Shown: positions 13,694-56,221 of the stretch, piece after piece
How the letters are laid out: every line of letters starts with the position of its first letter
How positions within the stretch are numbered: the first letter of the stretch is position 1
Assembly: GCA_052327205.1 (NCBI GenBank)
Contig: CM126206.1
Span: 205,158,001-205,222,000, forward strand
Reading direction: 5' to 3'
Origin: Somniosus microcephalus
Lineage: Eukaryota
DNA: 64,000 bases
Made by a program: the position numbers and the translations under genes
The notes under the pieces: generated by a model
Database searches by the model: none
Seen by the model: the letters and a program-made list of their open reading frames with translations, nothing else
What the model was told of the DNA's origin: nothing

Positions 13694-14177
13694 TAGTTGA
13701 AGTCAAAAATCAGTGTTGGCCAAGAAAAATCGCTGACTAGCCACAGGCGTTGCTATGGCAACACAATTTTAGCATCATGCAATAATTTTAGTAAAAATAC
13801 AAGGTAAATGTACTTCACAAAGTGCACATTTACTTAAACATCTATCACCATTCAGTGCAAGTTTTTCTCTTTCACCAAAGTTTGGAATTCTGGCATGAAT
13901 TTATCAGACACAGCACGTCTTAGTGCAACTTCTAGATTTTTGTCCAGCAGTTTTGAGCGGTACTTTGACTTCATCAGGGTGATTGCTGAGGGTGTTGATT
14001 CACACAACAAAATGTGCCAGACCATGCCTTTGCCATTACGTGCCCTGTTGGAGCTATTTCTTATGGGTCGGGCTTATTTTCTTCTGCTGGCCTGGAGTGG
14101 TTATTCCAACTGGCCAGGCTGACCATAAGGGCAGCTTGCCTCTCCAGACAATGTTGCTGGTCTTTCCATGGTGCTGA

Positions 14178-32830: not shown

Positions 32831-34211
32831 TAGATGTAATATCTCCAAGTTTGCAGATGACACAAAGCTGGGTGGGCGTGTGTGCTGTGAGGAGGATGCT
32901 GAGAAACTCCAGTATGATTTGGACAGGTTGGGTGATTATACTGCATCTGCCATGCATCTGCCCAATGTGGATAAATGCGAGATTATCCACTTGGTGGCAA
33001 AAACAGGAAGGCAGATTATTATCTGAATGGCAATAGATAGGGAAAAGGGGGAAGTGCAACGAGACCTGGGTGTCCTTTGTAGGGTTCTCAAAATTCCCAC
33101 ATTCCCCAAAGTTATTAATAAAGGGACCCTGAAGGACAAGTTATTAATAAGGGTACCCTAAATGAAATGGCTTCTGGACCTTGTGGCAGAAACATGCAAG
33201 ATTGAAAGCAGGACCCTGCAAAACAGGTCAAGTTCAAAAGGGCTTTGAAAAACCTGACATGCCTGGGCCTGTGGGAGACTTGTTATTTTTGAAGCCAGAC
33301 AACTAGATAATACAGAATACACATTCTTCATTTTGAAACAAATCAACTCAGGAAAGACTTAATCTTGAACCCATCAAACCTTTGCATAAATAATCGCTTA
33401 CAGTTTAAACTGGCTACCAAGCCAGGAAGATACCGATTCACATTATGCATAACACCGAGACATTAAAGACCATTTAGCAACGGGGCAACCACCCAAAAAG
33501 CAGTTAAAGTGAACGACTATAATCACCTTAGACGAGCCCGCCAAAATTAGACAAAGAACTAGCCCTAATTTGGCGCGCAGGTAACAACCTCCAAAAGAGT
33601 ATAATTGTAGGAAGACAAGCAGGCAAATGCGGGGACGAACTGCTACGGAGATGAGCGAGCAGAGAAGGGCAGTGTGGTGAAGCGTTGGGGACAAGCAGGC
33701 ACACGCTCAGGTCCAGGTTACTCGAAATTCAAAGAAGCAGCATGAAACATCATGGCGAGGAGGCACGGTGGGGCAGGTTCCACCGAAGATGACTAGGCCG
33801 CAACCGCAGCCTTACACAAGGAATGACCACGAGCACCGCGGTAACAAAGGGCGCCGGCTAAACCATACCTTCAGATCATTACCACTGCACAGGTAACGAT
33901 CTAGGCCATTGCGACCGAGCTGACACCAAAGACCGCCAACCGAACCCCAACCGCAACAAAACCTCGACGACCAGACCACCACCGGAAGAACAAAACCCGA
34001 AGTTTTCCACTCTACAAGATAAAGTACCCAGCAAAGACTTTACTCCCTATCTCTAACGGAGAAAAGAGGGTAATTTACTCAGACGAATCCACCACTGCGC
34101 TCTGGGACCATGTGGCGACGACAGGCCCCAAAGGACACAAAGAGCGAACCCCAAAACCGCAACCGGCTTAATCGACAGGATTCGACCTGTCAAGAAACCC
34201 TTATTGGTGAG

Positions 34212-37200
34212 TGTGGTAAACCACTGTTATTGTATATTGTTACCTCTGGGTGGCGCTGTGTACCAAGGCATGCATCAGCTGACTCCGCCCACATGACCAG
34301 GTATAAAGGTGGGGGTTTCGCCGACTCACTTCCTTCTTGGAACCAGCCACCCACGAGAGGCATGCTCTGTTCTCTAGTTAATAAAAGCCTTTTCATCACC
34401 TTCCTGATTCATCGTCTTTTATGGAGTAATTGATAAGCGTATCAATTTTATTAACTAGAAGTAAAATGGCGACACCTGAACAGCAACAACAGCAGGCGTT
34501 GCTGCGAGCCCTCAGACCGGCATGCCTGGACCTCGACCCTCAAGCAGCGGGTTCATCAACCAATTTCGAACACTGGCTGAGCTGCTTTGAATCCTTCCAA
34601 GGCGCCTCCGCCGTGACATCGGAGGAGAACAAACTAAAAGTTTTGACCGCCCAGGTGAGCCCTCAAGTATATACGCTCATCCGGGACGCTACTACGTACA
34701 CGGCGGCCCTCGAACTACTAAAAGGGCAATACACGCGCTGAGTGAACACGATTTACGCCAGACACCTCTTGGGATCCCGCAGGCAGCAACCGGGGGAATC
34801 GGTAGAGGCATTTTTACGGGCGTTACAGACACTCTGCAGAGACTGCGACTGTAAGGAGGTAACGGCTGCGGGGCACGCGGAGGGACTTACTTGTGATGCC
34901 TTCGTCAGGGGCCTCCAGTCCGACTACTCCCGGCAGAGACTGCTCGAAAGCAAGGAGCTCGACCTGAAGACGGCCGTAGCCCTTGCGCTCTCGCTAGATG
35001 CAGCCCACCGAAACCTCGAAGCATACTCACGTAACGGCGCCGCGCCATGGCCATCGCGACCGTGGGACATGGGACCGCCGCCCCCGGCACCAACTGCTGC
35101 AGCGATGTCCCGAAATCAACTGGGACAGCCGCCCCCGGTAAGAACCGCAGCGATGCCCCGTAACCAGGCCCAAAAATGCTATTTCTGTGGCCAGTTAAAA
35201 CACCCTAGAGCGCACTGCCCGGCTAAGACCGCTACCTGCTCGGGCTGCGGGAAGAAAGGCCATTACGCCAATGCCTGCAGGGGGAAACCAGCGAACGCCA
35301 GCAGCGCCGCGTGCGAACCATGGGGGCAGCCATCTTATCTGCCATTTTGTGCACCTCCGGCCGCATGGCCGCCGCCATTTTATCCGCCGCACTCAACCGC
35401 CACTTCGTCTCCGGACTCGACCACCGCCTCGTCGGACGACCATACCGACTCACTAAGCCATACACTGGCCTCCGTTACGCTGGATCAAGCCCTCCCTCAT
35501 CATCTATCCAGCTCCATGATGGATATCACGGTAAACGGCCGCGCCACCACTTGCCTAATCGACAGCGGGAGCACAGAGAGTTTTATTCACCCAGACACGG
35601 TACGTAGCCACTCCCTCACGGTCCTGCCGACGCGCCATCGGATTTCTATGGCGTCCAAGTCCCAGTCAATGGACGTCGGCAGCTACTGTGTGGTGACCCT
35701 TTCGGTTGGGGGCACAGAATATAAAAATTTTAAACTTCTAGTCCTGCCCCGTCTCTGCGCTGCCGTGCTGCTAGGGTTGGATTTTCAGTGCCACCTTAGA
35801 AGTGTCACATTAGCATACGGTGGACCCCTCCCCCCACTCCTCGCATATCTGATATGGTCAACCAGATTGCGCAATACAAAGTATTCTCCACCATTGACCT
35901 TAAGTCAGCATACCACCAGCTCCCCATCCGCCATGAGGACCGCCAGTATACTGCCTTCGAGGCGAACGGCCGCCTCTACCACTTCCTTAGGGTTCCCTTC
36001 GGCGTCACCAACGGGGTTTCGGTCTTCCAAAGGGAGATGGACCGGATGGTTGACGAGAACGCGCTGCAGGCCACCTTTCCCTATCTGGATAACGTCACCA
36101 TCTGTGGCCACGACCAGCAGGACCATGACGTTAATCTAGAAAAATTCCTCCGTACGGCCCAACGGCTGCACCTAACGTACAATAAAGAGAAATGTATGTT
36201 TCGCACCAAACGCCTCGCCATTCTCGGCTGCGTGGTGGAGAACGGAGTCATCGGGCCCGACCCCGACAGAATGCGCCCCCTAATGGAGCTACCCCTCCCC
36301 CACTGCCAAAAAGCACTGAAGAGATGCCTGGGGTTTTTCTCCTACTATGCCCAGTGGGTGCCCCACTATGCAGACAAAGCTAGACCCCCTCATCAAATCC
36401 ACCTCCTTCCCCCTGACACCAGAGGCGTGTGCAGCCTTCACTCTTATCAAGAGCGATATCGCGAAGGCCACAATGCACGCAGTGGATGAGTCGATCCCCT
36501 TCCAAGTGGAGAGCGATGCATCCGACTTCGCCCTAGCTGCGACCCTTAACCAGGCGGGCAGACCCGTGGCCTTTTTCTCAAGGACCCTCCAGGGCCCCGA
36601 GACCCGACACTCCTCTGTTGAAAAGGAGGCCCAGGCTATTGTGGAAGCGGTGCGTCACTGGAGGCATTACCTGGCCGGAAAACGGTTTACCCTGCTCACT
36701 GACCAGCGTTCAGTAGCTTTTATGTTTAATAATAAGCAGAGGGGCAAAATCAAGAACGACAAGATCTTGAGGTGGAGAATCGAACTCTCCACCTACAATT
36801 ATGATATCTTGTACCGGCCCGGGAAACTAAATGAGCCCCCAGACGCCCTATCACGTGGTACATGCGCCAACGCGCAGGTTGATAGACTGCAGACCCTCCA
36901 CAATGACCTCTGCCACCCGGGGGTCACCAGGTTCTTCCATTTCATCAAATCCCGTAACCTGCCCTACTCCATCGAGGAGGTCAGGACCATGACCAGGAAC
37001 TGCCAAATCTGTGCCGAGTGCAAACCGCACTTTTATAGGCCGGACAGAGCAAGCCTGATCAAGGCCACTCGCCCCTTCGAGCGCCTGAGCGTCGATTTTA
37101 AAGGGCCCCTCCCCTCCTCTGACCGCAACGTGTACTTCCTCAACATAACTGATGAGTACTCCCGTTTCCCGTTTGCCATCCCTTGCCCAGACATGACCAG

Positions 37201-38223
37201 TACCACGGTCATCAAATGTCTGAATGACCTCTTCGCCTTGTTCGGGTTCCCTAGCTATATACATAGCGACAGGGGCTCATCTTTCATGAGCGACGAACTT
37301 CGGCAGTACCTGCTAGCGAGAGGTATTGTTACGAGCAGAACCACCAGCTACAACCCCCGGGGGAACGGCCAGGTGGAAAGAGAGAACGCGACGGTTTGGA
37401 AGGCCGTCCTCTTAGCCTTAAAATCTAAGGGCCTTCCGACCTCTCGCTGGCAGGAGGTCCTCCCTGCGGCGCTCCACTCCATCCGGTCACTGCTTTGTAC
37501 TGCCACTAATGCCACCCCTCATGAGCAAATGTTCGTTTTCCCCAGGAAGTCCACATCGGGAACCTCGCTACCGGCATGGCTGACTTCTCCTGGGCCCGTC
37601 CTACTGCAGAGGCACGTAAGGACCCATAAAACGGACCCCCTGGTCGAGAGGGTGCGCCTCCTACACGCCAACCCCCAGTATGCCTGGGTGACATACCCAG
37701 ACGGGCGGGAGGACACGGTCTCCATACGAGATCTCGCACCCTCGGGTACCCCTGAACTACCACCGTTATCCCCCACCACCCCTCCCAATCCAACCCCTGT
37801 AGACGACATGCCGGAGCCCCAGGACCCTTCGTTGACCACCCAGACACCAGATCCGACGTTGGATGCTGCAACACCGCCGCCGCCGCCACCACGACGATCA
37901 GGACGTCAGACAAGGCCTCCTGATAGACTTAACTACACGAACTTGTAGTACCCTTCACCCCGCCGGACTTAATTTTAAACAAGGGGTGAATGTGGTAAAC
38001 CACTGTTATTGTATATTGTTACCTCTGGGTGGCGCTGTGTACCAAGGCATGCCTCAGCTGACTCCGCCCACATGACCAGGTATAAAGGTGGGGGTTTCGC
38101 CGACTCACTTCCTTCTTGGAACCAGCCACCCACGAGAGGCATGCTCTGTTCTCTAGTTAATAAAAGCCTTTTCATCACCTTCCTGATTCATCGTCTTTTA
38201 TGGAGTAATTGATAAGCGTATCA
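34212..38223 (+). mobile_element. Gypsy-1 (Mag-like) LTR retrotransposon inside the provirus 5' LTR
   Basis: 233-bp LTRs (34212-34444, 37991-38223) with one difference found by eye; GTGAG TSD; twin zinc knuckles, DSG protease, YLDN RT, RNase H, HHCC/DDE integrase; PPT AAGGGG. Confidence 0.93.
34466..37948 (+). pseudogene. Gypsy-1 gag-pol, disrupted
   Basis: In-frame TGA at 34739-34741, internal deletion at ~35840 removing the RT N-terminus, frameshift at ~36385. Confidence 0.85.
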
Positions 38224-38575
38224 GTGAGCATAGTCCCTGGCCCCTTATAGCACAATTTAGTTAGATATTGGGGGTGGGACAAGGGTAGGGGGTTTAATCA
38301 TGTGATTTTTCCCTCGATGTACCATGTGTTCCCCATTCTTAATTAAGTGTGTCTTTTATATGCCTGTAACTATTCCAGTAATTTTCAGTGTTGTAATTTT
38401 ATTGTGCCTTTAATAAAATACAGTTTTCTTGCATCAAACCAGTTGTCTACTCCAATTTGTATCGCAGCCTGTACCTAAGTCCGGAGTCTAGAACCACAGG
38501 GGTGTGGGAGCGATTCGAACCACTCAAAAACAGTCAGGGGCAAGCTGACTGCGTACACCAAAACCCCTACAGAAA

Positions 38576-38595
38576 TGGCGACCGCGGCAGGACTC
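38576..38595 (+). promoter_or_regulatory. Provirus primer-binding site, tRNA-Arg(UCG)
   Basis: TGGCGACCGCGGCAGGACTC is the reverse complement of GAGTCCTGCCGCGGTCG-CCA, the vertebrate tRNA-Arg-TCG 3' end as I recall it; 4 nt after the LTR end. Confidence 0.8.
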
Positions 38596-38646: not shown

Positions 38647-40288
38647 ATGGAAGAGAGGATTTCTAATTATGTCTTCAGTAAGGTGAATATCACAAGAAGT
38701 GGATCACTAATCTGTTAAAAGCTGGGTGTCCGGTAGGTGCTGCAGCTAAATGGACAGAAGGGAAGGATCATAGGAAATCCATGGAAAAGGCAGTCTGGCT
38801 GATGTGCTTCAAGAAACAGATCCAGCTTTTGGACAGGCTCGTTGAAGCACAGGCAGCCGAGATATGGGAGTCAGCCCTGGAAGTTGAAGACAGGACTCTA
38901 GCACAGGAGACCAAGAGCAATGAGCTGAGGTTGCGGGAAAAGAATGCCCACCTAGCAAAACAAGTAAGAGAGCAGGAGGAGAAAGTAAAAGACATAAAGA
39001 CCGCATACAAGATAGCGAGCACACAGGGGTTCGAAGATGCAGATCACAGCCCCTGCAAGGAACAGATAGAGAATCTGAGCTCTAAGAAAAGCAAAGGGCA
39101 TGGTGTGCCTCATAAGCCCTAAGGCAGCCCAGGCCGACTTTACAGGGAACGAGGGGAAAGCGGTTCAGACACCACGGGTAGTGCCAAGGGACGATCCGGT
39201 TGAGGGGCAGGAGGACCCACGACCACCACCAGTAGCGCCAGGTTTCAGCGAGGTCTGGCAACAAGGGGGGGGTGGAGTTATGGGTAGAAACGGAGGTGGA
39301 GCAGCCCCCGCAAGAGAGGCTGGCACCGGGACAGATGTGCCCGGCCTGGCAGCAAAGGTTTGGCCCGCCCGCTAATGACGGGGAAGAGGGACCCCTCCAA
39401 AACCAGTTCGTAGTTCCCTATGGCACCCAACAGCGTAGGGCCATGGTAAGCCATATACCAAAGCTCACAGAAAAAGAGGACCCCTCGGTCTACTTCAGGG
39501 AAGTGGAACAGGCAGCCAGCATCAACGAGTGCGATGATGCCGAACAGACCAAAATGCTGCTGTTCTCCCTGGAGAGTAAGCTCCTCCAGTCCCTCTCGGA
39601 CCAGTGTAAGAAAGGACAGTGCGAGTATGGGGAGCTCAAGGAGGAAGTTCTCGAGGCCATGGGGATGAATGAGGGAAGTCCTTTCTCCCGAATGGAGAAG
39701 ACAGTGCAGCTCGCAGGGGAAACCCCGCAGGCTTTCGCAGACAGGTTGTGGCCGGTGTACAGGAGTGCCTGTACTGGGGCACCTGACCGGGCTAACCTGG
39801 ACCAGGATCAACTGACCCACTGGCTCCGTTGCCTGGTGGCAAACAGCTTGCCACAGGTCAGGGCCAAGGTGGAAGTCTGTTTTGACCCTAAGAATCCCCT
39901 GACTACCGAACTGACGGTGATCAGACAATTGACCCTAGCTTACAGGAATAGTAGGGGAACCGATGCACACCCACCTAAGGGGAAGGTGCATGAAGTAAAA
40001 CCCGGACAGGGTAGGAAGGAGTGGCATCAGGAAGGGAATAACCCCCCCAACACAAAGCTTAACTGTTATGGGTGTGGGAAGGATGAACACTGGAGGAAGG
40101 AGTGCAAAAACCCTTGGAAGGATAACAAGGGAAAGAATTCCTCAGCCCAAAAGACAGAGTTAGGAATCCCTCCCGCCACGGTCGAGTCCTTTTTGGACGC
40201 GATGAGGACCCTTTTGACTGGCCCAGGGAGGGTAGCAGCCACTACCGGTGCTCTGACCCCATCAGCCCCATCCAACCCACAGCCCTGA
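38647..40288 (+). pseudogene. Provirus gag (frameshifted)
   Basis: N-terminal coiled coil (ELRLREKNAHLAKQVREQEEKV), MHR-like QLAGETPQAFADRL, single CYGCGKDEHWRKEC knuckle. Confidence 0.85.
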
Positions 40289-41009
40289 CTAGAGCCAGCG
40301 CAGCCTATTTACCTGTGTTCGCTTCAGTACGACTTATGGAAGAGACCCCTCGTTGAGATGGAGGTAGAAAAGGTAAAGGGGACCTATCTGTTGGACACGG
40401 GGGCATCATGCACCGTGATCCATTCAGATAACCCCACCACCTCAGCTCCATCTAGCGGGGTCCCATACAGCCTGTCGGGATTCACGGGTAAAGAACAGGC
40501 AGGCTCATTTTCCATCCCGCTGTCCATTCGTTTAGGAACACTCCGCTCTAAGTGGACCTGTATCCTAATGAAGTGGGAACTGGAGGGTGGAAAAGGGATC
40601 CTGGGAGCCGACTTTATTGTGGGCCACGGGATCCTAGTGGATTTAAGGAATCTCTGCCTATGGGGGGCAAGTACAGGAAAGGAAGGCGGAGTAGTAGTAA
40701 TCCCAGGGAAAGAGGGGAAGGGGACCCTGTGCACCATGAAGTCTAAAGAGGGTTATAACCTCGAGCTCATGGTCAGTAATACCCCAAATGAGTTCCAGGC
40801 ATCTGTGCGAGCCCACCAAGCCACATTTGCCACACACAAGCACGACTGTGGGAGGGTCAACGGGTTAGAGGTCAGCGTAGACGGGGACCCTATGGCCCGA
40901 CCACAAAAACAGTATAACTTCCCCAGGGAAGCGGAGCCAGACATGGAAGCAGCCATGTCCTCCTTAGTGCAACAGGGGGTCCTGAGACCGATAGCCACCC
41001 ACGTAAACT
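40289..41009 (+). pseudogene. Provirus protease and RT N-terminus; rest of pol deleted
   Basis: LLDTGAS and GILGADF protease motifs, then PQKQYNFP...LVQQGVLRP..VN. RT homology stops at ~41009 with no RT core, RNase H or integrase recognisable. Confidence 0.85.
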
Positions 41010-43677
41010 GTGAACTGGAAAGTTCACAGACCGCACAGGAGGGGGGCAATGGCTCGTGTTAAAAAACCACCAGCCAGAAAACCCCCACCAGCCAAAGTCC
41101 CTAGAAGGTCCCCACGAACGCCACGGCCAAAGAAACCGTGGTCACCGGCTCCCCAGTTTAAACGGGCAGCCTCTCGTCAGGGATCGGTCTGAGGACAGAG
41201 GTTCCCAGCCAGCAGCCGCAGGCTGCGAGGGACCGAAAGTACAGGACAGGGCAGCCACACCGAAGGGAGTAGTGTGCTGCAGCCCGAACAGGGATTAGCC
41301 TGGCCGCCCGGAGACGGGCGGCAGATGTACATAGTTTCTGTAATGTAATTTGGTTATTGTTAAGTTTGGGTGTTTAGTTTAATTTTAAACAAGGTGATTG
41401 GTAGTTTAAATATTATTGTTTTAGTGTTTGTATTGTGTCAAGGTCACAAGACTCGACTATGCTTCATCCAAGCCAGAGAATCTTCTCGGGACCTGGCTAT
41501 ATGCTCGTGTCTCTTTACAGAAGGGATTTCGGGATGAAGGGGGGCATACTCCTACTCGCCCCGATAGGAATGAGCACAGGGAAGCGAGGTGATGTGGAGG
41601 ACTCCCACATCTATGGGTGCTCAGGAGAGAGAGCACCGGTTGTGACTGCTGGGGGCAGCGAACGAGGCGTGGAGGAGCTCGCCATCTATTCCCATGAGGG
41701 AAGATGGCCAGGGTGGCTGGGATCCAACTCCACCCGGTACTCCAGCCAGACCGGGTTCACCTATGGGGAGGCCTCCCTCCCCTGCCCCAGCATACAGGTG
41801 GTGGCCACACGGGTTGGGGTCATTGAGGGGAAACGCGTGTGCCTGACTTGCAGAGTACAGATTCCACTGGGAAGGTGGTGGTGGCTCAGAAAGCTGAGCA
41901 AAGACTTGGGGGACCGTACAGCTGACTGGGTACGACTAGGGAACGACACCTACCGGACGGTCACAGGGACCCGAGGGGGGACTAGTGTATGCTGGGATAA
42001 GTGGTGGGAGTCGGAACAGGGAATTTATGTCTGCATGTGGGGGTCGCAAAGGGCCTGCCCCACAGGCATATCCATCATCTTCTCCGCATCATGGCAGGAT
42101 AAGGGGAAGGGGGTGGAATGGGATTCCCACCTACACACTTGCATAGTCCCACGCTCCCCAGCCCCAGTTAAAGCCACTGAACTAGTGGCACGCGCCCGAA
42201 AGCCCCTGCCCATGACCCAGGCAGCAAGGACACACAGAGAGGGGTGCCCTGCCACCACCAAGGGACCAGGGAATGGGCTGGTACTAGTGCCGACGGAAAA
42301 GGTGCTATACCAGGGAGTACACGACGCGGTAGCTTCCGTGATTCTGAACCTTACCGAGGTACACTTACCTGAGTGGTGCCCCAAAGAGACAGAACAGCTA
42401 TACCAGGCCCCGTTAAGAGAAATGTTTAGGAAATTCTACGAGTTCGATTTTGCCAATGTAGACAAGACAGAACTGTCCACTACACACACTGAGTATTTTG
42501 GTAGTGCGGGGAGACAAAGAAGGGGAACCTGGAATGATGTTTTCACAGCGTTTAACACAGGATCCTCTGTTATAAACAGCCTGGATGACATAGTATTGCA
42601 GACACAGATAAACAGTTTGAACACACAATTGCGAAAAATCTTAATGGATGAAAATACAGTAGTAGGCTCAGAGTTACACGAGGACCAGGCTATGACGTTC
42701 CATTTAAAAGAGATCATTGCTGAGCTGGAGAAGCACGCAAAGACTGTAAATGCCCTCATAAAAGAGAGGACAGCAATGCTTCAGATCAGGCTGCACAGAA
42801 CGAGGTGTGCGTACTGTATGGGGCATGGTTGCTGGGCGAGGGCCGCAGTAACCTGGAGGATTTAAAACAGGGTTTAGTCCCCTCCTGGATCAGCAACAAG
42901 CACCTCGCAGCCCTCCACTGGGCTTCTGAGGCCTACCCTGTCCCAGTAGATTGTGGGCGCTCTAACCACACTATCATGGGGATAGTAGTGAGGATGCCGG
43001 TCATGGGGGGGACAGCCCGACCTGCACCGGTATACAGGGTAGAGAACATTGGAGTCATTCAAGGGGGTGCACACATCCGTTTCACAGTGGTCCCACCTTA
43101 TCTCAAAGTGGGAGCACGCAATAACAGGTACTGACCTCTAGGGGTGCCGGAGCCGGGGAGCACACATAATACTATGTCCCCAGCACTTGAACGCCTATTC
43201 AAAACCACAGTGCAGGTTTAAAGCTGCTGGCGCAAAACCTATAAACTGTACCATGGAGGTAATGGCACAAGACCATGTTCCCCCACAGGTAGCATATATA
43301 GGAGGTGGGACATATTGGCCTAGAAATTCAGTATAGCCACGTTTGGGGCACTACAGCCAGGCGTTCGCTAAATTTAGCGCCCGGCGCAACTTAGCGCCAC
43401 CTTTGCCGATATTCAGTTGCATCGCCCCAAGAGGTTGCTGCTGCGCTAAAGCAGGCGATGCAAGACTATCATAAGGAGCTAAACCAGCGTGCCAAGGCGC
43501 TAACACCGAGGGCGGGTGCAGCGCAGGTGCGGCAAGTTGCTGATTGAAGGCAGACACGCTGGCGCCGGTCAGCTCTTAAAGGGGGAGGGTGGACTTGTTT
43601 GGCTGCCACGCCCTGCACACTGCAGCCCTGAATCAAGGCCTGAACATAGTTGCTTCAACAGGTCAACGCCCACGACT

Positions 43678-46600
43678 ATGGAGAAGGCTAGGGAGCGAGC
43701 GCAGCACTTCAGCGAGGGTGCCCTGAAGCTACTGGTTGGCACAGTGGAGCGCAGGCGACTTGTCCTCGTCCCCGATAGTGGCAGGAGGCCGCTGCCCAGC
43801 GAGTATAGAAAAGCCTGGAGGGAGGTGGCAAACAGGGTGACCTCCAACAGCATGGTTGCCAGGACTCCTGTGCAATGCAGAAAAAAGTTCAATGACCTCA
43901 CTCGGGTTATCAGGGTGAGTGCCCTTTCCAGTATCCTCCTCATCCCTGCATGTGCACCTCACTTTATGGCCAAAGGGACCTGAAAGCCCCAATGCCCAGC
44001 CCTCATCCAACAACTACGGGACTCTCATGAAAATCACTTGCACATTCAGCACTTTACACACTGTCAGGGCTATTCCACCATGGGAGGCAGTGCAGGCAAG
44101 ATCAGGGCTTGACACTGTCAGGGCTATTCCACCATGGGGGGCAGTGCAGGCAAGATCAGGGCTTGACACTGTACTTAGAGGCCGTCCTTTCTCTTGCAGG
44201 GCAAGCTGGCCCACAATCGCAGGCAGCAGCGACGGACCGGGGGTGCCGTCCTGACCTCAAAGAGCTCAGCGACCTGGAGCAGTGTGTGGAGCGCATTATG
44301 GCAGGCCGGCTGATTGGCCCTGTCGCCAGTGGAGATGCCGACCCTGTTCTGGACAGCAATGGTAAGGTCATAACCTTTTTGACCGCTCTTTCCACTTGTG
44401 CCTCACACCAGCATCCTTTGCCACTATCAAACCAATGCAGTGCATAGCAGCACTCATGCCTCCCTCGCTGCCGCCCTGTCCTCACTCTAAAGCAACTCTT
44501 GTGCCTCCCTGCTTTCAAATGCTGAATCGCCAGGTGAGGAGGCGGGCCCTCAAGCTGCCACTGTCAGTGATTCTGAATTCGAGGAGGAGGAAGAGGAAGC
44601 TGGCCCATCAGTGCCACCCTCAGCCGAGGCAGCCCATGGTCATGATGGGGACACGTCTTCCCTGGAAGGGAGCAGGGGGGGGGAAGGGTCCGAGGAGAGT
44701 GAAGCTCCGGGGCCCAGTGGGCTGCAGCAACGCGGGAGGGGTGGGGAAGCTCGGTGGCCTTCTCCCCGGAGGGTGAGTGCGGCCTCCACTCCTGCTACGG
44801 TGAGCGCAGAGGAGGTGCGGCTCCTTGGTGAAATGGGCGCCCAGGCTGAGCGCAGGCACACTGAGCTCATGGCTGCAGTGGCAAGGATGCCTGACTCCAT
44901 AGAGTCACTGGCAAGGAGTGCTCAGGAATTCGGGGCAGCACAGGCCAGGAGTCTGCAAGAATTCAGTGCAGCACAGGCAAGGAGTCTGCAGGACTTCGCG
45001 GCAGCACAGGCGGCTTCCAGCCAAGTACTCAGTCGTACCGTGCATTCACTGGCTGGTCTGATGCAGACACAGATCAGGGCCACACGGGCACTAACTGCTG
45101 CCACCCTCGCTGGATCGGCCAGGCATCGCCGGGGCCCTCGCCGCGCCACAGCAGCCTGTGCTTCAGCAGATTGCTGCGCATGCTGCAGTGCTGGGCCGTG
45201 CGAGTGCCAGTGTATCAGCCGACCAGGGAGTGCCTGTGCTCTGTCAGGTTGGCAGCATTCCTGCAGCCATAAGAACATAAGAAGTAGGAGCAGGAGTAGG
45301 CCATAAGTCCCCTCGGGGCTGCTTCGCCATTCAACAGGATCATGGCTGATCCGAATCTAGACTCACGTCCACTTCCCTGCCCTCTTCCCGTAACCCCTAA
45401 TTCCCTTATCTGCTAGGAAACTGTCTATCTCCGTTTTAAATTTATTTAATGTTGCAGCTTCCACAGCTCTCTGGGGTAGCAAATTCCATAGATTTACTAC
45501 CCTCTGAGTGAAGAAGTTTCTCCTCATCTCAGTTTTGATAGGGCAGCCCCTTATTCTAAGATTATGCCCCCTAGTTCTAGTCTCACCCATCAGTGGAAAC
45601 ATCCTCACCGCATCCACCCGATCAAGCCCCCTCACAATCTTATATGTTTCGATAAGATCGCCTCTCATTCTTCTGAACTCCAATGAGTAGAGTCCCAACC
45701 GACTCAACCTTTCCTCATACGTCAACCCCCTCATCTCCGGAATCAACCGAGTGAACCTTCTCTGAACCGCCTCGAGAGCAAGTATATCTTTTCTTAAATA
45801 TGGAAACCAAAACTGCACGCAGGATTCCAGGTGTGGCCTCACCAATACCCTGTATAACTGCAGCAAGACTTCCCTGTTTTTATACTCCATCCCCCTTGCA
45901 ATAAAAGCCAAGATTCCATTGGCCTTCCTGATCACCCGCTGCACCTGCATACTAACTTTTTGTGTTTCATGCACCAGGACCCCAGATCCTTTTGTACTGT
46001 AGCACTTTGCAGTTTCTCTCCATTTAGATAATAACTTGCTCTTTGATTTTTTTCTGCCAAAGTGCATAAACTCACACTTTCCAACATTATATTGCATCTG
46101 CCAAATCTCTGCCCACTCACTTAGCCTGTCTATGTCCTTTTGCAGGTTTTTTATGTCCTCCTCACTCACTGCTTTCCCTCCCATCTTTGTATCGTCGGCA
46201 AACTTGGATATGTTGCACTCAGTCCCTTCCTCCAAATCGTTAATATAGATTGTAAAGAGTTGGGGTCCCAGCACTGACCCCTGCGGAACACCACTGGTTA
46301 CTGATTAACAGCCCGAGAACGAACCATTTATCCCAACTCTTTGTTTTCTGTTAGATAGCCAATCTTCCACCTATGCCAGTATATTACCCCCAATCCCGTG
46401 ATTTTTTATCTTGATCAGTAATCTTTTGTGTGGAACCTTGTCAAATGCCTTTTGGAAGTCCAAATACACTACATCCACTGGTTCCCCTTTATCCACCCTG
46501 TATGTTACGTCCTCAAAGAATTCGAGCAAACACTGTCACTCCTCCACTGCAGCTGCCACCACCCGTAGGACAGACTGCTGCCGCCCAAGCAGAGTTGGAG

Positions 46601-46798
46601 CAGTCAGCAGCCGGGCCCTCCAGGCCCAGAGCTGGTCCAGGCCGTCCCCCAAGGGCATCTGCCGTCTCACCATCTGGCCCTCAGCAGCCTTCCCCCAGCC
46701 TTGCTGCAGCCACTGGGGTCCCATTGAGGAGGAGCTGCAGGGCGGGAAGGGGCCACTCGCGGAAGCGAGGCGGATCACCCTTGCAGGGGAAAAAGTAG
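43678..46798 (+). pseudogene. Harbinger B Myb/SANT-like DNA-binding gene (spliced, CR1-interrupted)
   Basis: Exon 1 43678-43914 (AWREVANRV...RTPVQCRKKFNDL, gtgagt donor); exon 2 44200-44361 (GKLAHNRR..TGG); exon 3 split by CR1. Confidence 0.8.
45268..46530 (-). mobile_element. 5'-truncated CR1 inside Harbinger B
   Basis: ORF 45363-46274 with KFADD; ATAAGAAC tail. Confidence 0.9.
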
Positions 46799-47132
46799 GT
46801 GGTGTGGCCAAATGTTTTTTTATATATGAAGGCCAAGAAGGTTTCTTTATATATGAAGGCCGAGACTGTTGTGTTTGTTTTTTATATGAAGGCCGAGGAT
46901 CATGGTCATTTTTGTTTAACTGTTTTTTTCATTTTCTGAAGGTTGAGCCAGTTATGTCTCTGACTGTTTTTTGGGGGGTTTATCTGAATTAGTTTGTCAT
47001 GCGGGAAGGGCACAGAGTTTGCACATTGTCCATGTTTGCACTTTGAACTATTTGTTGCCTTGACCAGCTGAGGGCTTGCAGAGCGGCTCCATTCATGTCC
47101 TTTCATTGGCACAAGCCATTCCGAGAGGGGGC

Positions 47133-48208
47133 CTAGAACCGAGTTGCAATAAGCTGCCAACGGACGGCCCTTGCACTTTGTGCCTCCCTCCCGTCTTGGT
47201 GCTCCGCTTCCTCCTCCTCCTCCTCTGGTGGTCCTCCAATGTCTGCTGGCAGTGGCCGAGTCCTGAGGATAGCCAGGTTGTGCAGCATGCAGCACACTAC
47301 AACAAAATGGGAGACTCGCTCAGGCGAGTACTGTAGGGCTCCTCCGGAACGATCCAGACAGCGGAACCATTGCTTGAGCATGCCAATGATGTTCCTGGTA
47401 GCTTGATGGGTGTCATTGTATCGCTCTTCAGCAGGGGTGCTGGGCGCACGGAGCGGGGTCATCAACCAGGTGCACAAAGGATAGCCTTTGTCCTCGAGAA
47501 GCCATCCTCATGGGTGAGCCTGGGCTTCAAAAATGTCTGCCACAGGATGAAGGCATTGTGGCTGCTGCCAGGAAAGCGGGCATTGACAGCTAGTATGAGC
47601 TGCCTGTGGTCACACACCAACTGGACGTTGAGCGAACGGTAGCCCTTCCGGTTGCGGTAATCCTCGGCATTCTGTAGAGGTGCCTGCAAAGCCACATGCG
47701 TGCAGTCAATGGCGCCCTGGACCATGGGGAAGCCCGCTATTCCTCCAAATCCCATTGCACGTTCTTCCTGCTTGTCCAGGGTCATGAGGAAGGAGATGTA
47801 CTGACGTCTCCTTCTGAAAAGGGCATTGGTCACCTGACGGATGCAGCAATGTACCGCGAACTGGGAGATGTTGGAAATGTCCCCAGTAGCAGATTGGAAG
47901 GAGTCGGTGGCATAGAAGTTGAGAGCCACCGTCACTGCCACCGACAGAGATGTCCTGCTCCTCAGCCGTGGCTGCAGATCTCTGCAAAGCAGGTGGCAGA
48001 TCTCGGTGACCACCTCCCTTCTGAATCGCAGCCTCCGAACACACTGCTCCTCAGACATGTTCAGATATGAGAACTGCTGGCGGTATACCTTGGGTGGGTA
48101 AGGCCTCCTGTGCCGACGCCTGTTGGCCCTTCTCCGTCTGGCCATGACTGGCACTCTCTCACGGCGTCTGAGCCCTTTGAATGCAATGCAGTAAGCCAAC
48201 GTTTCCAC
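47133..48208 (-). pseudogene. Harbinger B transposase (HARBI1-like DDE)
   Basis: [44 protein letters not shown]; frameshift near 47530. Confidence 0.9.
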
Positions 48209-50027
48209 CCATTGCAGCCCCCATTATATGTGGCAACTCAAGGCTATGGCACTGAAAGTTAAATCCAAGTGCAAAGCTCTGGCCTGAAGCCAGAAGTACC
48301 TGTGCGAGCGCCGAGTCAAACCAGAAAGCTCTCTCCCTTTGTCTCTCTCCAAATATCCGTCTCTCACAAAGAAGGATTGCCACAAAATGGCTACCACTTA
48401 TAATGCAGGAGGAGTCCCCTTTAAATAGCACCCCCCGCAGCGACTGGGAACCATTCCCCTCTACCAGTCGCTGGGGGCGCCAGCCGCACAGAAGGGCGGC
48501 GCCACTGAAGTTCCGGTTCGGGGCGCACCAAGGGCGTTGCACCATGAAATGACGTCAGGATCTGCGCGCGCAGCTGAGCGGGCGCTGCGGTTTAGTGCCG
48601 CCGCTAAATCTTGAGTGAAGTTCGCGAGAGGCGCAGATCGCGCCGCGCCCGGGCGCTAGCCGCTTAGCACTCCACTTCTCCTCCTCCTAAGGCGCTAACG
48701 GCTGGCGCTAACAACTGAATTTCTAGGCCATTGTGTCACCACAGGTGCGCCCCACTACCAGCATGGACAGCATAGCTGGTGTCTGGTAAGTGACAGCAGT
48801 TTCTGCTTTAAACCCGAGGCAGAAGCTCAAGTGGCCCAGGAATGAATTGGCCCCATTCCTGAACCCTCTACTGTTCACCTCACTGTAAAAGTGAATTTTA
48901 CCAACCTGCAAATATATGTAGCACATTTCGGCTACGAAATCCCCCCTCTACCAGAACATCTTACCAAGTTACTAAAAGCAGTAGTCATCTCACAAAAACA
49001 TTTCTACACGTTGGAGCAGAAGACAGTAGAGATAGGGGCCAAGATATTGAATATTGTAGTTCCACCCTGGTGGGACATCTTTGAAAATATAGAGGTCCTT
49101 TCATGAATTAGAATGGCTTCCCACATCCTCGTGGTTTGCCAGCTGGGAATAGTATTGTACCTAGTGTGCACTCAGTGCAAGGGAAAAGGCCAAATACTAG
49201 AATTCTGAAACCAAAGGACTTGGAAGGAGCATTATGTTAAGGTGGAGGGAGATACACCTGTTTGAATCTTTTTATTTTATATTTCTGAATAAAGATTGTT
49301 GTTTTTTTGTGTTTTTGTTATTTTTAATAAAGATTTTGATGTGTTATTTTTAATAAAGATGTGTGTGTACCAAGTGGTGCAGGGGTGTTGGAACCCCTCC
49401 ATGCTTGGATGTATGTAAATAACTGTATTCTGCCTATGTATGCTTATGTACACTACATTTTTAGAGAATGGGAAATGTGTGTGTCATGGGATGTTAGATA
49501 GGTAATTACAGGGAAGGTTGGCTATGGAGGGTCGGGAATTTTGCTCAACTTTGTAAGTATGATACTTAAAGCGAGTTTTAGTATCAACAGGAGGGAGTGT
49601 AGGGCTCTCAAAATTCACACATTCCCCAAAGTTATTAAAAAAGGGACCCTGAAGGACAAGTTATTAATAAGGGTACCCTAAAGGAAATGGCTTCTGGACC
49701 TTGTGGCAGAAACATGCAAGATTGAAAGCAGGACCCTGCAAAACAGGTCAAGTTCAAAAGGGCTTTGAAAAACCTGACATGCCTGGGCCTGTGGGAGACT
49801 TGTTATTTTTGAAGCCAGACAACTAGATAATACAGAATATGCATTCTTCATTTTGAAACAAATCAACTCACGAAAGACTTAATCTTGAACCCATCAAACC
49901 TTTGCATAAATAATCGCTTACAGTTTAAACTGGCTACCAAGCCAGGAAGATACCGATTCACATTATGCATAACAAACACCGAGACATTAAAGACCATTTA
50001 GCAACGGGGCAACCACCCAAAAAGCAG

Positions 50028-50784
50028 GGGGATAGAATATAAAAATAGGGAGGTATTGCTTCAGTTGTACAAGGTATTGGTGAGACCGCACCTGGAATAC
50101 TGCGTACAGTTTTGGTGTCCATACTTAAGAAAGGACATACTTGCTCTCGAGTCAGTACAAAGAAGGTTCACTCGGTTAATCCCAGGGATGAGGGGATGGA
50201 CATATGAGGAGAGGTTGAGTAGATTGGGGCTCTACTCATTGGAGTTCAGAAGAATGAGAGGCGATCTTATTGAAACATATAAGATTGTGAAGGGGTTGGA
50301 TCGGGTGGATGCGGGGAAGATGTTCCCGATGATGGGTGAAACGAGAACTAGGGGGCATAGTCTTAGAATAAGGGGCTGCTCTTTCAAAACTGAGATGAGG
50401 AGGAACTACTTCACTCAGGGTGGTAGGTCCATGGAATATGCTGCCCCAAAAAGCTGTAGAAGCTACATCATTACATAAATTTAAAACAGAAATAGACAGT
50501 TTCCTAGAAGTAAAGGGAATTAAGGGTTACAGGGAGCGGGCAGGAATTTGGACACGAGTCTAGGTTCGGATCGGTCATGGCCCTGTGGGTAGCGGAGCGG
50601 GCCCTGGGGCCGTGTAGCCTGATCCTGCTCCTATTTCGTGTGTCTAATTCTGTTAGATTCAGGAGATGGTTCTGTGATAGTGGATTGGCGGTTAGGATCA
50701 GATCAGCCATGATCTTATTGAATGGCGGAGCAGGCTCGAGGGGCCGATTGGCCTACTCCTGCTCCTATTTCTTATGTTCTTATG
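50028..50784 (+). mobile_element. 5'-truncated CR1 in the 3' LTR
   Basis: ORF 50056-50478 RT tail; the segment is absent from the 5' LTR at the same position. Confidence 0.9.
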
Positions 50785-51320
50785 TAAGGTGAACGACTAT
50801 ATGTAAGGTGAACAACTATAATCACCTTAGACGAGCCCGCCAAAATTAGACAAAGAAGTAGCCCTGATTTGGCGTGCAGATAACAACCTCCAAAAGAGTA
50901 TAATTGTAGGGCCACCGGTAGGCAGACAAGCAGGCAAAAGTGAGGATGAACTGCTACGGAGACGAGCAAGCAGAGAAGGGCAGTGTAGTGAAGCGTTGGG
51001 GACAAGCAGGCACACGCTCAGGTCCAGGTTACTCGAAACGCAAAGAAGCAGCACGGAACATCGTGGCGAGGAGGCACGGTGGGGCAGGCTCGACCGAAGA
51101 CGACTAGGCCGCAACCATACACGAGGAACGACCACCGCGGTAACAAAGGGCCGGGTAAACCATACCTTCAGATCATTACCACTGCACAGGTAACGATCTA
51201 GACCACCGTGACCGAGCCGACACCGAAGACCGCCAACCGAACCCCAACCGCAACAAAACCTCGACGACCAGACCACCACCGGAAGAACAAAACCCGAAGT
51301 TTTCCACTCTACAAGATAAA

Positions 51321-54300
51321 TGTAGTGTCCGTGTGTAGATAAAGACACTGAAGACAGGAGTTGGTTCATAGGTATTTACTAAGCAAGCCTGGGGGGGGGG
51401 GGGGGGGGGGGGGGTTCTAAAGGATATACACAATACACAGGCTTATATAGCCCAAGTGGCAATTACCGGCATTACGCACACCTGGGGCTCTTAAAGGCAC
51501 ATACACCATAATTCCTCCCCTTCTAGCTAACTAGTACATCATATTTTAAGTAATTATTAATTACATGTTATATGCAAAATAATATACATTGCTGTATTAA
51601 TTAATTATAAGTTAGTCTCTCAGGAGGATTCCTGACTCGGTCCGGATAACGCCTCGGGGGTGTAGTAGTTTCTGGTGGTGTAGTAGGTTCTTCTGGCAAG
51701 GCCGATTCGGCTTGAAGGCCAGTGTCGGGTTCATCGGGCTCCAGTATCACCGGATCGGAGGTAGATATGGGTATCTCTACTTCATCGTTAGATGTATAGA
51801 GTGGTGGTGTATGTTGTCCCTTTTCGGATGACTTGATGATTTGGTCAGCATGGCGCCTTATTATGCTGTCTCCGATGTCCACGGTATACATCAGTGGTCC
51901 TAATCGTGTGCAGATAGTTCCAGGCTGCCATTTCTCGGTACGGTAGTCCCGGGCCAAAACCGGTTGGCCTATCTGGAAGGCCCTAGTTGGCCTTTCATTC
52001 ATGCCCTGAAACTGCCGGTTCTCCACGTCCCTTCGGATGTTGGGCTTGACCAAATCCAGCCGGCATCTTAGGTTTCTATTGTAGAACATCATGGCGGGAG
52101 TTTGGTTAGTAACCATATGCGTTGCATTCCTATATGCAAATAAGAAGTTATCCACCTTGTGCTGAAGTTTTATGTCTTCATTACTCATGGCCTTGATGGC
52201 CTTCTTGAAGGTCTGGACAAACCTTTCAGCCAATCCATTGGTGGCGGGATGGTATGGGGCGGACGTGTAGTGCTTTACCCCATTGTTCTTTAAGAACTTT
52301 CTGAATTCTTCGGACACAAATTGCGGTCCATTATCAGAACATATCTGCTCCGGCAGCCCATTCCTGGCAAATATGGTCCTTAATACTGTGATGGTTTTTT
52401 CCGTGGTGGTGGAGGACATCTTTATTACCTCCGGCCACTTGGAGTGTGCATCAACTGCGATTAAGAACATTGAGTCCATAAATGGACCAGCAAAGTCGAT
52501 GTGCACCCTTTGCCAGGGAGATGAGGGCCACTCCCATGGATGTAGAGGGGCCTGTGGCAGAGCATTTTGGACCTTCTGGCATCCTAGGCAGCTCTTGGTC
52601 ATGTCTTCGATGTCTCCATCGATACCTGGCCACCATACAAACGCCCTAGCTAGGTTCTTCATTTTCACTCCACCCAGATGCCCCTCGTGAAGCTCCTTTA
52701 GCACTTTATCCTGGAGTTTGGGTGGAATCACCACTCTGGATCCACACATCAAGGTTCCTCGGCACACTGACAGCTGTTCTCTTCTTTGCGAGAATGCTGG
52801 CAACAGTGGTTCGCCATGTGCTGGCCATCCCTTCACTGTTAAATCATAGACCCGTGAGAGAGTAGGGTCATTTCTTGTCTCCCTTTCAATGGCAGAATTT
52901 GTCACCGGTAGACATTCCACTATGGTAGAGTGGAATATCTCTACTGGGTCTACTGTAGGTGCCTCTTCTATCGTTGGCAATGGTAGGCGTGATAAACCGT
53001 CAGCATTCCCATGCTGTTTTGACCCTTTGTATTCAATGTTGTATTGGTGTGCCCCTAGAAAAAGGGACCACCTCTGTAGTCTTTGTGCCGTCATAATGGG
53101 GACACCTTTTTTAGGGTTGAATATGGAGATGAGGGGTTGATGGTCAGTCAGCAAGGTAAATTTTTGTCCGTGTAGGTAATGGTTGAATTTCTTCACTCCC
53201 CATACCAGGCTGAGTGCTTCCCTGTCTATTTGGGCATAGTTACGCTCAGCTGAGTTCAATGAGCGTGACGCAAAAGCTATCGGCCGTTCCGAGCCATCAG
53301 GGAATCTATGGGACAATACCGCTCCTATGCCGTAAGGGGATGCATCGCACGCCAGTCTGATTGGTAGTGATGGGTTGTAATGAGCCAAAATTTTCTCGGA
53401 TGTGATTAAGTCTTTACATTTATGGAAGGCACGTTTACAGTCTTCGTTCCATTTCCAAATCACTCCTGTCTGTAGAAGATCATTAAGAGGGTGTAGAATA
53501 GTTGATAAGTTCGGTAAAAATTTATGATAGTAATTTATTAATCCCAGGAATGACCTTAATTGTGAAACATTTTCAGGTGCTGGGGCTTTTATAACTGCTT
53601 CAATTTTTTCAGGTGACTTATGCAACCCTTCCTTATTAATTATGTGGCCACAATATGATGTCTGATTTTGGAAAAATTCGCACTTGGGGCGATTTGCTCG
53701 TAGGCCCCGTTCTTTCAGCCTAGTGAGCACCTGCTCCAAATTGGCAAGGTGCTCGTTGTCGTTTTCTCCTGTTATAAGGATGTCGTCTAGGTAGCATGGA
53801 GTCCCCGGAATCCCTTGCAGGACTTGCTCCATAGCTCTTTGCCAGATAGCTGGAGCTGATGCTATTCCAAAAACCAGTCGATTGTACTGGTACAGGCCTT
53901 TGTGTGTGTTTATTGTGAGATACTTTTTAGAAGTCTCCTCAACCTCCATTTGTAGATATGCCTGTGCCAAGTCAATTTTTGTGAAACGTTTCCCTCCGGA
54001 TAGTGAGGCGAAAATATCTTCTATCCTCGGAAGAGGATACTGTACCGTGTGAAGGACCGGGTTTACAGTCACCTTAAAGTCCCCACAGATGCGAATTTTT
54101 TTCTGTTCCTCAGAGTTATTTTTCAATGTTTTTTTCATGACTGGAATGATGGGTGTTGCCCATTCGCTCCAATCTATTTTGGATAATACGCCTGCCTTTT
54201 CCAAATTCTTCAGCTCTGCCTCGACTGCCGGACGCATTGCGTATGGCACCGGTCTTGCCTTAAAAAATTTTGGAATTGCTGTATCTTCCACTTTTATTGA

Positions 54301-56221
54301 GGCGGTGATGCCTTTCAAGGTTCCTAGTTTCTCTTGAAACACTTCTTTGGCGTTGGCCAAGATGCCTTTTAATCGTTCAGGTATGATGTCATCATTGTTT
54401 TTTTCCTTACTGGTCACCGTCAGTGCCTGAATGGAGTGCCAGTCTAAACGTATCTTCCTTATCCATTCACGTCCCAACAACGGTGGACCACCATCTTGTA
54501 GAATGTATAAATACAACTTTTGTATTTCTTTGCCGTTGTATACCACAGGCACCCTTATTTTTCCTTTGGGGTAGACTTTCTGCCCCGTATATGTTTTTAA
54601 GATAATGGATGTGTCTTTTAGAGGTATATGCGAAAATAGCCTCTCGTAATCTCGTCGATTTATTACGGTTAGAGCTGATCCTGTATCTAGCTCCATTTTA
54701 ACTGGGGACCCTGCTATTGTGAGGGTAACCCAAATGGTTTGGTAATCCTCTTTGGCAAGTACATTATGTAATTTGAGACAGCTTAGTCTCTTGTTTCCGG
54801 AGTCGCTATCGCTATTCTGGTCTTCGGAGCTATTGTCCGTCACCATTTGTACCTTCCTGTACTTTTCTTTATTGATTTTTTGTTTTCTGTCAGTGGATTT
54901 ATTTTGTTCAGATTGGCATACCCGTGCAATGTGTCCAATCTTACCACATTGCCTGCATGCTTTGCCCTTGAACCAGCAGTCCCTCTGGTTATGGGTGGAT
55001 CTGCCGCAGCGATAACATCTTCCGAACTCCTGTGTCATTTTATGGGTGCCGAAGTCCTGTGTCTCTTGTTGTATCTCTGCAGCTCCTTTTGCTGCTGCTT
55101 CGTATGATACAGCCATACTGAAAGCTTTGTCCAATGTTAAATCTTTTTCAGAAAGCAGTCTTTTTTGTGTTCCTTCACTTAAGAGACCGCAAACAAATTT
55201 GTCTCGAAGATAATCCGATAGTCCTGCTCTGAATTGGCAGTACTTTGATAGCTTTCTTAATTCGGTTAGGTAATCAGCGTTACTTTCATTCTTGTGTTGA
55301 TTTCTCTTGAAGAACTTGAATCGTTCCGCTATCAGCAGCGGTGTTGGGTTTAAATGCTCCTGCAGGGTATCAACAATTTCTTTAAAAGTCTTGTCCTTTG
55401 GTTTGGCTGGAGTGATTAAATTTCGTAACAGCCCGTATGTCTTCGCGCCCATTAAGTTCAGAAGTACTGAAGCTTTTTTTTCATCTGTTATTCCATTTGC
55501 AGTGCAATAAACCTCTACTCATTCCACGTATGTGGTCCAATCTTCTATTTCGCCATCAAAAGCCTCAATATTACCAGATTTAGGCATTTCAGAAAAGATA
55601 TGGCGCTTCCCGCGCTTTTTTTTTTCTCTCTGTAGCAACGATATGGCGCTTCCCGCGCTTTCCCGCCGCTGCTACCGATAACAACGCTGTTTTAATGTGG
55701 TTTCCGTTTATTCACTGTTGGAGACTCGTTCCCGACGGAGGTCTAAACGCTGACCTGCTTGCTGCGCCAGCCGTCTCTCGAGTGCACCCTCCCAGTCCGT
55801 TATTGCTTGCCTCCGATTTCGCTGCCTGTCTCAGCTGTAGAGCCCACCGCTGGAGCTCCAGCCTGACGCCCAGGAAGGATTAGCGCAGAACCTGTCACCA
55901 GCTTGGCCAGCTGGTGAAACCACAGTTTCTCTTACTTCCTTGAGTCTTCTGGACGCTGGAGGAATCGATGTCCTTGAGGTGCTGCCGAATTGCAGGTAAG
56001 TCCGTTTCCACTTCGTCGCCACTGTAGTGTCCGTGTGTAGATAAAGACACTGAAGACAGGAGTTGGTTCATAGGTATTTACTAAGCAAGTCTGGGGGGGT
56101 TTCTAAAGGATATACACAATACACAGGCTTATATAGCCCAAGTGGCAATTACCGGCATTACGCACACCTGGGGCTCAAAGGCACATACACCATAATTGCT
56201 CTTAAAGGCACATACACCACA
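51321..56221 (-). mobile_element. Gypsy-2 (Mag clade) LTR retrotransposon in the 3' LTR
   Basis: LTRs 51321-51510 and 56023-56221; ATAAA TSD; PBS TGGCGACGAAG (tRNA-Ser-like) at 56011-56021; PPT AGAAGGGGAGGAA. Confidence 0.93.
51601..55587 (-). pseudogene. Gypsy-2 gag-pol, single frame with one premature TGA
   Basis: ATG at 55587 (MPKSGNIEAFD), TGA at 55519-55521, then an open 1283-aa ORF with twin knuckles, DTGS, YLDD, RNase H and integrase. Confidence 0.9.

Follow-up and report, generated by a model that had tools for sequence, protein, structure and literature searches.

A putative immunoglobulin V-like head preceding a predicted F-type fusion core in the Env protein of an endogenous retrovirus of the shark Somniosus microcephalus

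Introduction

For attachment, F-type fusion proteins usually depend on a second, separate protein or on sites of their own. Among the retroviral Env proteins, cited here and below for the available portions of the respective sources, those of the gamma type carry N-terminal immunoglobulin (Ig)-like receptor-binding domains (RBD), and one class (Env-Dbi) has captured a SIRP-like IgV domain from its host (Hotzel, 2024; 10.1101/2024.03.17.585361). The Env of foamy viruses combines an F-like core with a built-in RBD of its own fold (PMC11468914), while the Env of lokiretroviruses has been matched to PF00523 (Wang and Han, 2020; PMC7947760). A paper on the F-type Env of errantiviruses (PMC13524379) mentions neither immunoglobulin nor sharks in its available text, and an anamniote Env survey likewise mentions no Ig module and no sharks.

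Here we analyse a window of 64,000 nucleotides of the Somniosus microcephalus genome (GCA_052327205.1, contig CM126206.1, positions 205,158,001 to 205,222,000), which contains an endogenous provirus whose env gene encodes an Ig-like module ahead of a predicted F-like core. The initial annotation had been aware of no description of this architecture for the present type of Env. Ig-type heads as such are known from the gamma-type Env. For their combination with an F-like core, full-text searches listed no paper, a scope outside which subscription papers, Repbase, bioRxiv supplements and the SnRV Env fall.

Results

Organization of the provirus

The env gene carrying the module is part of one broken, nested and dead provirus on the plus strand (Table 1). 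Its LTRs of about 1.47 kb (TGTAGGG...CCCTACA) are flanked on both sides by the target-site duplication CCTT and differ at 50 of 1,464 aligned bases (3.4%; leaving out the most divergent block lowers this to 1.9%). About 3.2-3.5 kb of pol is absent at 41016/41017 relative to most other copies; the Pol of another copy comprises protease, reverse transcriptase (RT), a Ty3-like tether, RNase H and integrase, with Pfam matches to RT_RNaseH at residues 438-543 and to RNase_H at 591-733. Decay of the F1-like segment of env is evident from a frame break near 42770, a short deletion near 42918 and further breaks. The whole provirus sits inside a LINE and carries four later insertions, namely two Gypsy elements, one Harbinger-type transposon and one LINE piece. 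The Gypsy element in the 5' LTR has LTRs of 239 nt that are 99% alike, the Harbinger-type transposon itself contains a LINE piece, and the 3' LTR, immediately preceded by a purine tract, is interrupted by a LINE piece and by a Gypsy element (51601-55518, minus strand) with an open gag-pol frame of 1,305 codons. Outside the provirus, a long degenerate tandem repeat at 29355-29975 has open frames on both strands, which lack a Pfam match.

Table 1. Parts of the provirus and of its env gene, with positions in the 64,000-nt window
Feature	Position	Strand	Remarks
5' LTR, first part	33078..34205	+	begins TGTAGGG; preceded by CCTT target-site duplication
Unrelated Gypsy LTR element nested in 5' LTR	34206..38223	+	protease, RT, RH, integrase
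5' LTR, last part	38224..38571	+	ends CCCTACA
Primer-binding site	38576..38593	+	18 nt complementary to 3' end of host tRNA-Arg(TCG) plus CCA
gag, in pieces	38682..40288	+	CCHC knuckle; charged N-terminal part coiled-coil-like (by eye)
Protease and start of RT	40289..41016	+	pol gap adjoins 3' side
env leader and conserved segment of about 60 residues upstream of module	41534..41776	+	hydrophobic leader; one N-glycan site at 41726
Ig V/I-like module, 108 residues	41777..42100	+	six Cys, Trp cluster, EQGIYVC
Pro/Thr/basic linker with two Cys	42101..42262	+	least constrained ectodomain part between subfamilies
F2-like segment	42263..42523	+	GPGNGLVL strand through furin site RQRR (42512-42523)
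F1-like segment	42524..43316	+	putative fusion peptide, heptad region, Cys-rich region
Harbinger-type DNA transposon in env	43317..48729	.	Myb/SANT and DDE frames, terminal inverted repeats, 3-nt duplication
env 3' part with membrane anchor (about 49113-49172)	48730..49200	+	stop codons present
3' LTR in three pieces (49598-50027, 50804-51320, 56222-56755)	49598..56755	+	followed by CCTT

Position and residues of the Ig-like module

The initial annotation had described, between the signal peptide and the furin site, a B-strand Cys, a Trp 9-11 residues later and a second Cys at a distance of 61 residues within a (D/E)xGxYxC motif, and every residue and spacing of this description proved correct. 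The residues fall in the open frame 41405-42865 (plus strand), where the module lies in frame between the hydrophobic leader starting with Met 41534 and RQRR. The codon of the B-strand Cys is at 41849 and is followed by three Trp codons at 41876, 41879 and 41882 (+9, +10 and +11), while the sequence E-Q-G-I-Y-V-C occupies 42014-42034, its Cys at 42032 being 61 codons past the first. Four more Cys missing from that description (41783, 41840, 41990 and 42056) are likewise conserved, and an N-glycan site is present at 41942.

As compared with Ig domains of the V/I-set, the B-to-F Cys spacing of 61 is within the expected 55-75 and the third Trp (+11) within the expected 10-15 residues after the first Cys, both being invariant in an alignment of 35 sequences; the [DE]-x-[GA]-x-Y-x-C motif appears as EQGIYVC here and as DEGIY/DEGMY-x-C in the other subfamilies and the skate. 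In shuffles of a 442-residue Env piece, the strict pattern [VILF]x[LIV]xC-x8-14-W-x38-62-[DE]xGxYxC occurred 6 times in 100,000 and a looser C/W/YxC pattern 3,797 times in 100,000, both patterns having been composed after the sequence had been seen.

Just upstream of the module (41650-41720), the subfamilies show E-E-T-A-T/V-Y/H-F-H or E-D-Q-A-T-Y-F-H, reminiscent of how the F strand of an Ig domain ends, and the best PDB match of a whole-Env profile is a Fab at this very stretch (E 0.16). There is no space for a full second domain, and the stretch may be a remnant or a chance resemblance.

Tests for an immunoglobulin fold

The initial annotation had called the Ig V/I-set consensus established, which is too strong a term for the assignment. 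The family-wide pattern and several weak tests point the same way, while the best Pfam score stays below its cut-off and the fold could not be modelled. The Pfam model Ig_3 matches the module with an E value of 5e-4 over model positions 2-74 of 78, at a score of 20.9 bits against a curated cut-off of 30, and is matched at E<=1 by 14 of 14 and by 33 of 35 aligned relatives (best 2.8e-4); the V-set and I-set models gave no reported match in the Pfam scans of the relatives. A single-sequence search of the PDB yielded a best E value of 0.082, with Ig proteins making up three of the five matches. A profile of 14 sequences (A3) placed the V domain of CRTAM on top (E 0.019; the alignment spans about 90 residues and has two short gaps), Ig-domain proteins accounting for 11 of its 15 matches at E<=10, and a wider profile including the flanks (A4) gave two matches, neither of which was an Ig protein. 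The V/I-set domains of CRTAM, neurotrimin and CD8 alpha are the best, though weak, sequence neighbours and share the same Cys-Trp-Tyr-Cys spacing; identity to them is in the twilight zone, and only the virus has the four extra Cys and the Trp clusters.

Profile comparison with HHalign used alignments of exons from the same genome as targets (30 distinct V-set, 27 I-set and 30 fibronectin-III sequences). The module scored 18.7 against the V-set and 19.3 against the I-set exons over 65-68 columns. Fibronectin-III exons gave 12.5, over 9 columns, reversed controls 12.1-12.2 and 60 column shuffles 10.8+/-1.9 (maximum 17.6). The HHalign probability for the module was just 4-7%, whereas true V versus I domains reached 97%. 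When six representatives were shuffled, the real score was equalled in 0-14 of 2,000 shuffles for the I-set, in 0-38 of 2,000 for the V-set and in 55-1,072 of 2,000 for fibronectin-III. Sliding along Env confined scores of 18-20 to windows overlapping the module, with the remaining ones reaching up to 15-16 (I-set).

AlphaFold and Foldseek, proposed along with the initial annotation as a way of checking the fold, lent it no support. AlphaFold2 gave a mean pLDDT of 35 from the single sequence and again with 35 sequences, the latter run modelling a helix across the Trp strand, and Foldseek with the first model found no match at E<=0.001 in PDB and BFVD. AlphaFold is known to fail on shallow and narrow alignments, and as the present alignment is of this kind, the two runs carry little weight; on the other hand, because both ended at a pLDDT of 35, the Ig fold is regarded as probable rather than demonstrated. 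If the module is numbered like an antibody light chain from the canonical Cys, two of the extra Cys presumably come to lie at positions 20 and 74, which we take to be adjacent and outward-facing, on strands B and E; the remaining two presumably lie N-terminally and where strand G begins. The extra Cys could thus plausibly form two additional disulphides that match the register of a V fold. On these grounds, a divergent Ig V fold of the module appears quite probable.

Conservation and selection

The family to which the element belongs is very large: searches of the 6.4-Gb host genome yielded 14,000-17,000 first-look candidates each, of which 150 were scored, so that all such counts are rough or lower bounds. 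The 150 copies scored from one set of 15,284 candidates are 86-95% identical across the module. At least four subfamilies are present (A, that of the window, and B, C and D), with some env frames open over about 800 codons. In the 35-sequence alignment (50-93% identity), for which stop-free copies had been chosen, the third Trp, the Gly, the Tyr and all but one of the six Cys are invariant, the exception being nearly so. Subfamily D provides a fairer test of conservation because it was retrieved by a downstream stretch; all nine key residues are kept in 14 of its 20 copies as counted by script, or in 15 of 20 if one misplaced by the script is added.

The only homologues of the Env recovered from the databases searched are proteins from sawshark and skate. 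Contrary to the possibility, raised with the initial annotation, that other family members might lack the C/W/[DE]xGxYxC pattern, it is kept in four subfamilies of this genome and in both of these species. Two of the sawshark models (P0005 and P0006) join env pieces to a zinc-finger gene and to Niban and are probably gene-model artefacts.

The homologue search proposed with that annotation had been coupled to an estimate of selection, and the module turned out to be under purifying selection between subfamilies, with pairwise dN/dS values among natural copies of 0.09 (B-C), 0.16 (B-D) and 0.17 (C-D). These figures come from 76 usable loci out of 79, one duplicate locus having been dropped beforehand, and from at most 60 non-independent pairs per comparison. 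Between A and the other subfamilies, synonymous sites are saturated (pS 0.74-0.78, pN 0.24-0.25). Elsewhere in Env, dN/dS is 0.22-0.47 in the linker and, where measurable, 0.11-0.13 in F2. In distant subfamily pairs, the module retains 53-62% identity as compared with 66-75% for the F2 piece. The purifying selection between subfamilies indicates that the module was required while the virus replicated. Values within subfamilies were discarded as evidence, since the copies of A-C had been selected by module score.

Two RNA runs from a related organism covered the whole element at low depth and on both strands, with reads mostly 90-95% alike and no joint; with thousands of copies in the genome, such reads cannot demonstrate env expression. 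Searches of viral and metagenome contigs returned nothing, or three chance matches of 15 residues.

The fusion core

From GPGNGLVL (42263) onward, the first strand, the cleavage site, the heptad region and later motifs are common to the shark and lokiretrovirus Env, as judged by eye. Matches to the Pfam model Fusion_gly are weak (E 0.063 in one of ten proteins, 0.065 in one of eight and 0.031 in two of twelve), and PDB sequence searches with the whole Env and with the F core matched no F protein. The Env core is likely a fusion core of the paramyxovirus F type, as far as these shared sequence features go. According to the available supplement of PMC7947760, the lokiretrovirus Env resembles that of the shark in its signal peptide, a first strand of the form GP-x-x-G-hydrophobic and an R-x-x-R cleavage site, and the viruses further share the heptad region, the membrane anchor, a weak Fusion_gly match and a Pol with tether and RNase H. 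The two differ at the N-terminus: about 225 residues, including the Ig-like module, precede the shared first strand in the shark Env, whereas all 22 lokiretrovirus Env with an N-terminus pass directly from the signal peptide to the first strand without such an arm (by eye; one of the 23 records in the supplement has no N-terminus and was left out).

Relationship of the Pol protein

The Pol of the shark element has a tether plus RNase H and the motif LPQGFHNS in its RT. LPQG is the general retroviral form of this motif, and a tether plus a second RNase H is common to all retroviruses. In the available supplement of PMC7947760, the lokiretrovirus RT reads PFGY-x-NS instead, at 38 + 31 places, with the amphibian and coelacanth rows reading likewise, and PQGFHNS does not occur; one table row of the same source gives no lokiretroviruses in three chondrichthyan genomes. 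A tree of the RT-tether region (35 rows) groups the shark Pol with frog and coelacanth Pols and one further row (support 87/89), and a branch with support 100/99 divides it from ten teleost Pols of the PFGY-x-NS type and from Gypsy. The identity as a lokiretrovirus, which had been the first label of the element, was dropped in view of the RT motif and the separation from the teleost Pols.

The RT and RNase H stretches resemble, by eye, those of SnRV as given in the PMC7947760 supplement, and the nearest Pols (frogs, coelacanth, birds) come from the host range given for the SnRV clade, which includes lineage I of CmiERV from the elephant shark (Han, 2015, PMC4422223; PMC12193657). Lokiretroviruses are characterised by an integrase close to CGIN1/NYNRIN, and the top named matches of the shark Pol are annotated as NYNRIN-like. 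Two bird proteins with such an annotation, P0020 (ostrich) and P0021 (hummingbird), prove to be Pols that possess tether and RNase H, and they share the side of the tree on which the shark element lies. SnRV reportedly has an Arg-tRNA primer site and a coiled-coil Gag, as Hart et al. are said to have described in 1996, and the shark element resembles this description in its 18-nt match to tRNA-Arg(TCG) and its coiled-coil-like Gag. The provirus is thus probably SnRV-like as judged from its sequence, an assignment that is probable but unproven because the tree contains neither an SnRV nor a published lokiretrovirus sequence among its 35 rows.

Discussion

Ig V domains of adhesion molecules bind cell-surface proteins, and we lean towards reading the module of the shark Env as a divergent Ig V fold that likely serves as the cell-binding head of a fusion protein, itself likely of the F type, and likely derives from a host exon. 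Env would be produced as a single precursor and cleaved at RQRR, leaving an N-terminal subunit (Ig-like head, linker and F2-like piece) attached to the membrane-anchored F1-like subunit. The trimer would display three heads projecting on flexible Pro/Thr linkers, each of which could bind a cell-surface protein, hold the virion and help to trigger fusion. The provirus contains no partner gene for its fusion core, whose attachment function the Ig-like head would supply, so that a single chain might perform the role which falls to the separate attachment protein in the case of paramyxovirus F. The module itself would likely have been taken long ago from an exon of the host Ig superfamily and stiffened by the two extra predicted disulphides.

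The layout of the shark Env can be set against two described systems as far as the cited sources are available. With the gamma-type Env, including Env-Dbi, it shares an N-terminal domain of the Ig V type and a Pro-rich linker, and with the SIRP-like class also a canonical disulphide between strands B and F and an additional one (predicted for the shark module), but those heads sit on SU/TM of the gamma type instead of an F-like core, and the SIRP-like domain aligns clearly with its host donor, whereas the shark module has no recognisable one (10.1101/2024.03.17.585361). The foamy virus Env shares the F-like core together with a binding domain in one chain (putative in the shark), but its RBD is a large insertion of its own fold at residues 217-543, as opposed to the N-terminal and Ig-like module of the shark (PMC11468914).

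The module could be something other than an Ig domain, namely a Cys/Trp-rich viral domain with Ig-like spacing by chance, and the failed AlphaFold runs, the empty fold searches, the scores below threshold and the lack of an Ig match with profile A4 would all fit this explanation, as would the unusual Trp clusters and the fact that the region was chosen for its Ig-like look. We regard it as unlikely, given that the strict motif arises so rarely by chance, that three different comparisons place Ig proteins first and span the module from end to end, and that the extra Cys suit positions on neighbouring strands. An Ig fold may also have served as a spacer, a shield, a cap steadying the trimer before fusion or a mimic interacting with an immune receptor, with the F-like core itself binding the cells, as the lokiretrovirus Env presumably does. 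The lokiretrovirus Env has spread widely without an arm (PMC7947760, available part), which implies that an F-like core is able to work alone, the best neighbours in the structural database are immune and adhesion molecules (CRTAM, CD8 alpha), and the module has been under steady purifying selection with no rapid change in the dN/dS comparison. On the other side, an N-terminal module on a Pro-rich linker corresponds to the layout of gamma-type RBDs (10.1101/2024.03.17.585361, available part), and the module diverges faster between subfamilies than the F2 piece, which is a tendency of binding heads; a role other than receptor binding seems rather unlikely to us.

As to the origin of the module, the initial annotation had proposed that a host domain of the Ig superfamily was captured. 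Several weak sequence tests indeed indicate an Ig domain of the V/I-set, but no close host donor emerged from searches of the shark's own genome, the PDB and protein homologues. An Ig-like, cell-binding module might alternatively have come from another virus, for example as a gamma-type Env head, or from a duplicated F domain II. Transfers of RBDs between retroviral Env have been reported (10.1101/2024.03.17.585361) and F domain II has a fold of the Ig superfamily (PMC11468914), as stated in the available texts; the missing host donor points in the same direction, and so do the GC3 (0.68) and CpG level of the module, which match those of gag and the leader and are unlike those of a recent host exon. 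Against this, the gamma-type heads described in the available text of 10.1101/2024.03.17.585361 are without the canonical B-F disulphide that is kept in the module, and a comparison of the module with the F core of the element itself gave a score of only 9.5 over one column. Duplication of F domain II was rejected as source on account of this lack of similarity, and a viral origin altogether strikes us as improbable; an ancient host exon is the likely source.

An Ig head fused ahead of an F-type core, both of them predicted, would represent a third way of attachment beside a separate attachment protein or sites within the fusion protein. The module is also a small and testable RBD candidate for a class of retroviruses from fishes and amphibians for which no mode of entry has been described. 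If the placement of Pol holds, an F-like Env would occur in the SnRV clade, beside those of foamy viruses and lokiretroviruses, which would bear on the question of the first retroviral envelope.

A lead outside the sharks comes from the frog Pyxicephalus adspersus, where the protein XP_072255088.1 (P0012) continues behind its integrase with a stretch resembling a signal peptide, followed by an Ig V-like domain (residues about 1195-1310). This part may represent the beginning of a frog env, or else a host exon that the gene model has appended. More speculatively, and in our opinion doubtfully, retroviruses of the SnRV clade in sharks, skates and frogs could share a fusogen of the paramyxovirus F type with exchangeable host-derived Ig heads, namely a V domain rich in disulphides in the chondrichthyans and an independently captured V domain of the CEACAM/SLAM type in the frogs. 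If this were true, the F-type Env would lie deep within the true retroviruses, and the capture of Ig domains would be a recurrent way of gaining receptors. The frog domain and the shark module appeared unrelated in a direct comparison. The frog domain is without the canonical Cys pair and matches Ig_3 with an E value of 0.012, SLAMF5 with 0.0022 and CEACAM8 with 0.027; the protein containing it is a Pol model of the sister group, in a protein cluster with one member.
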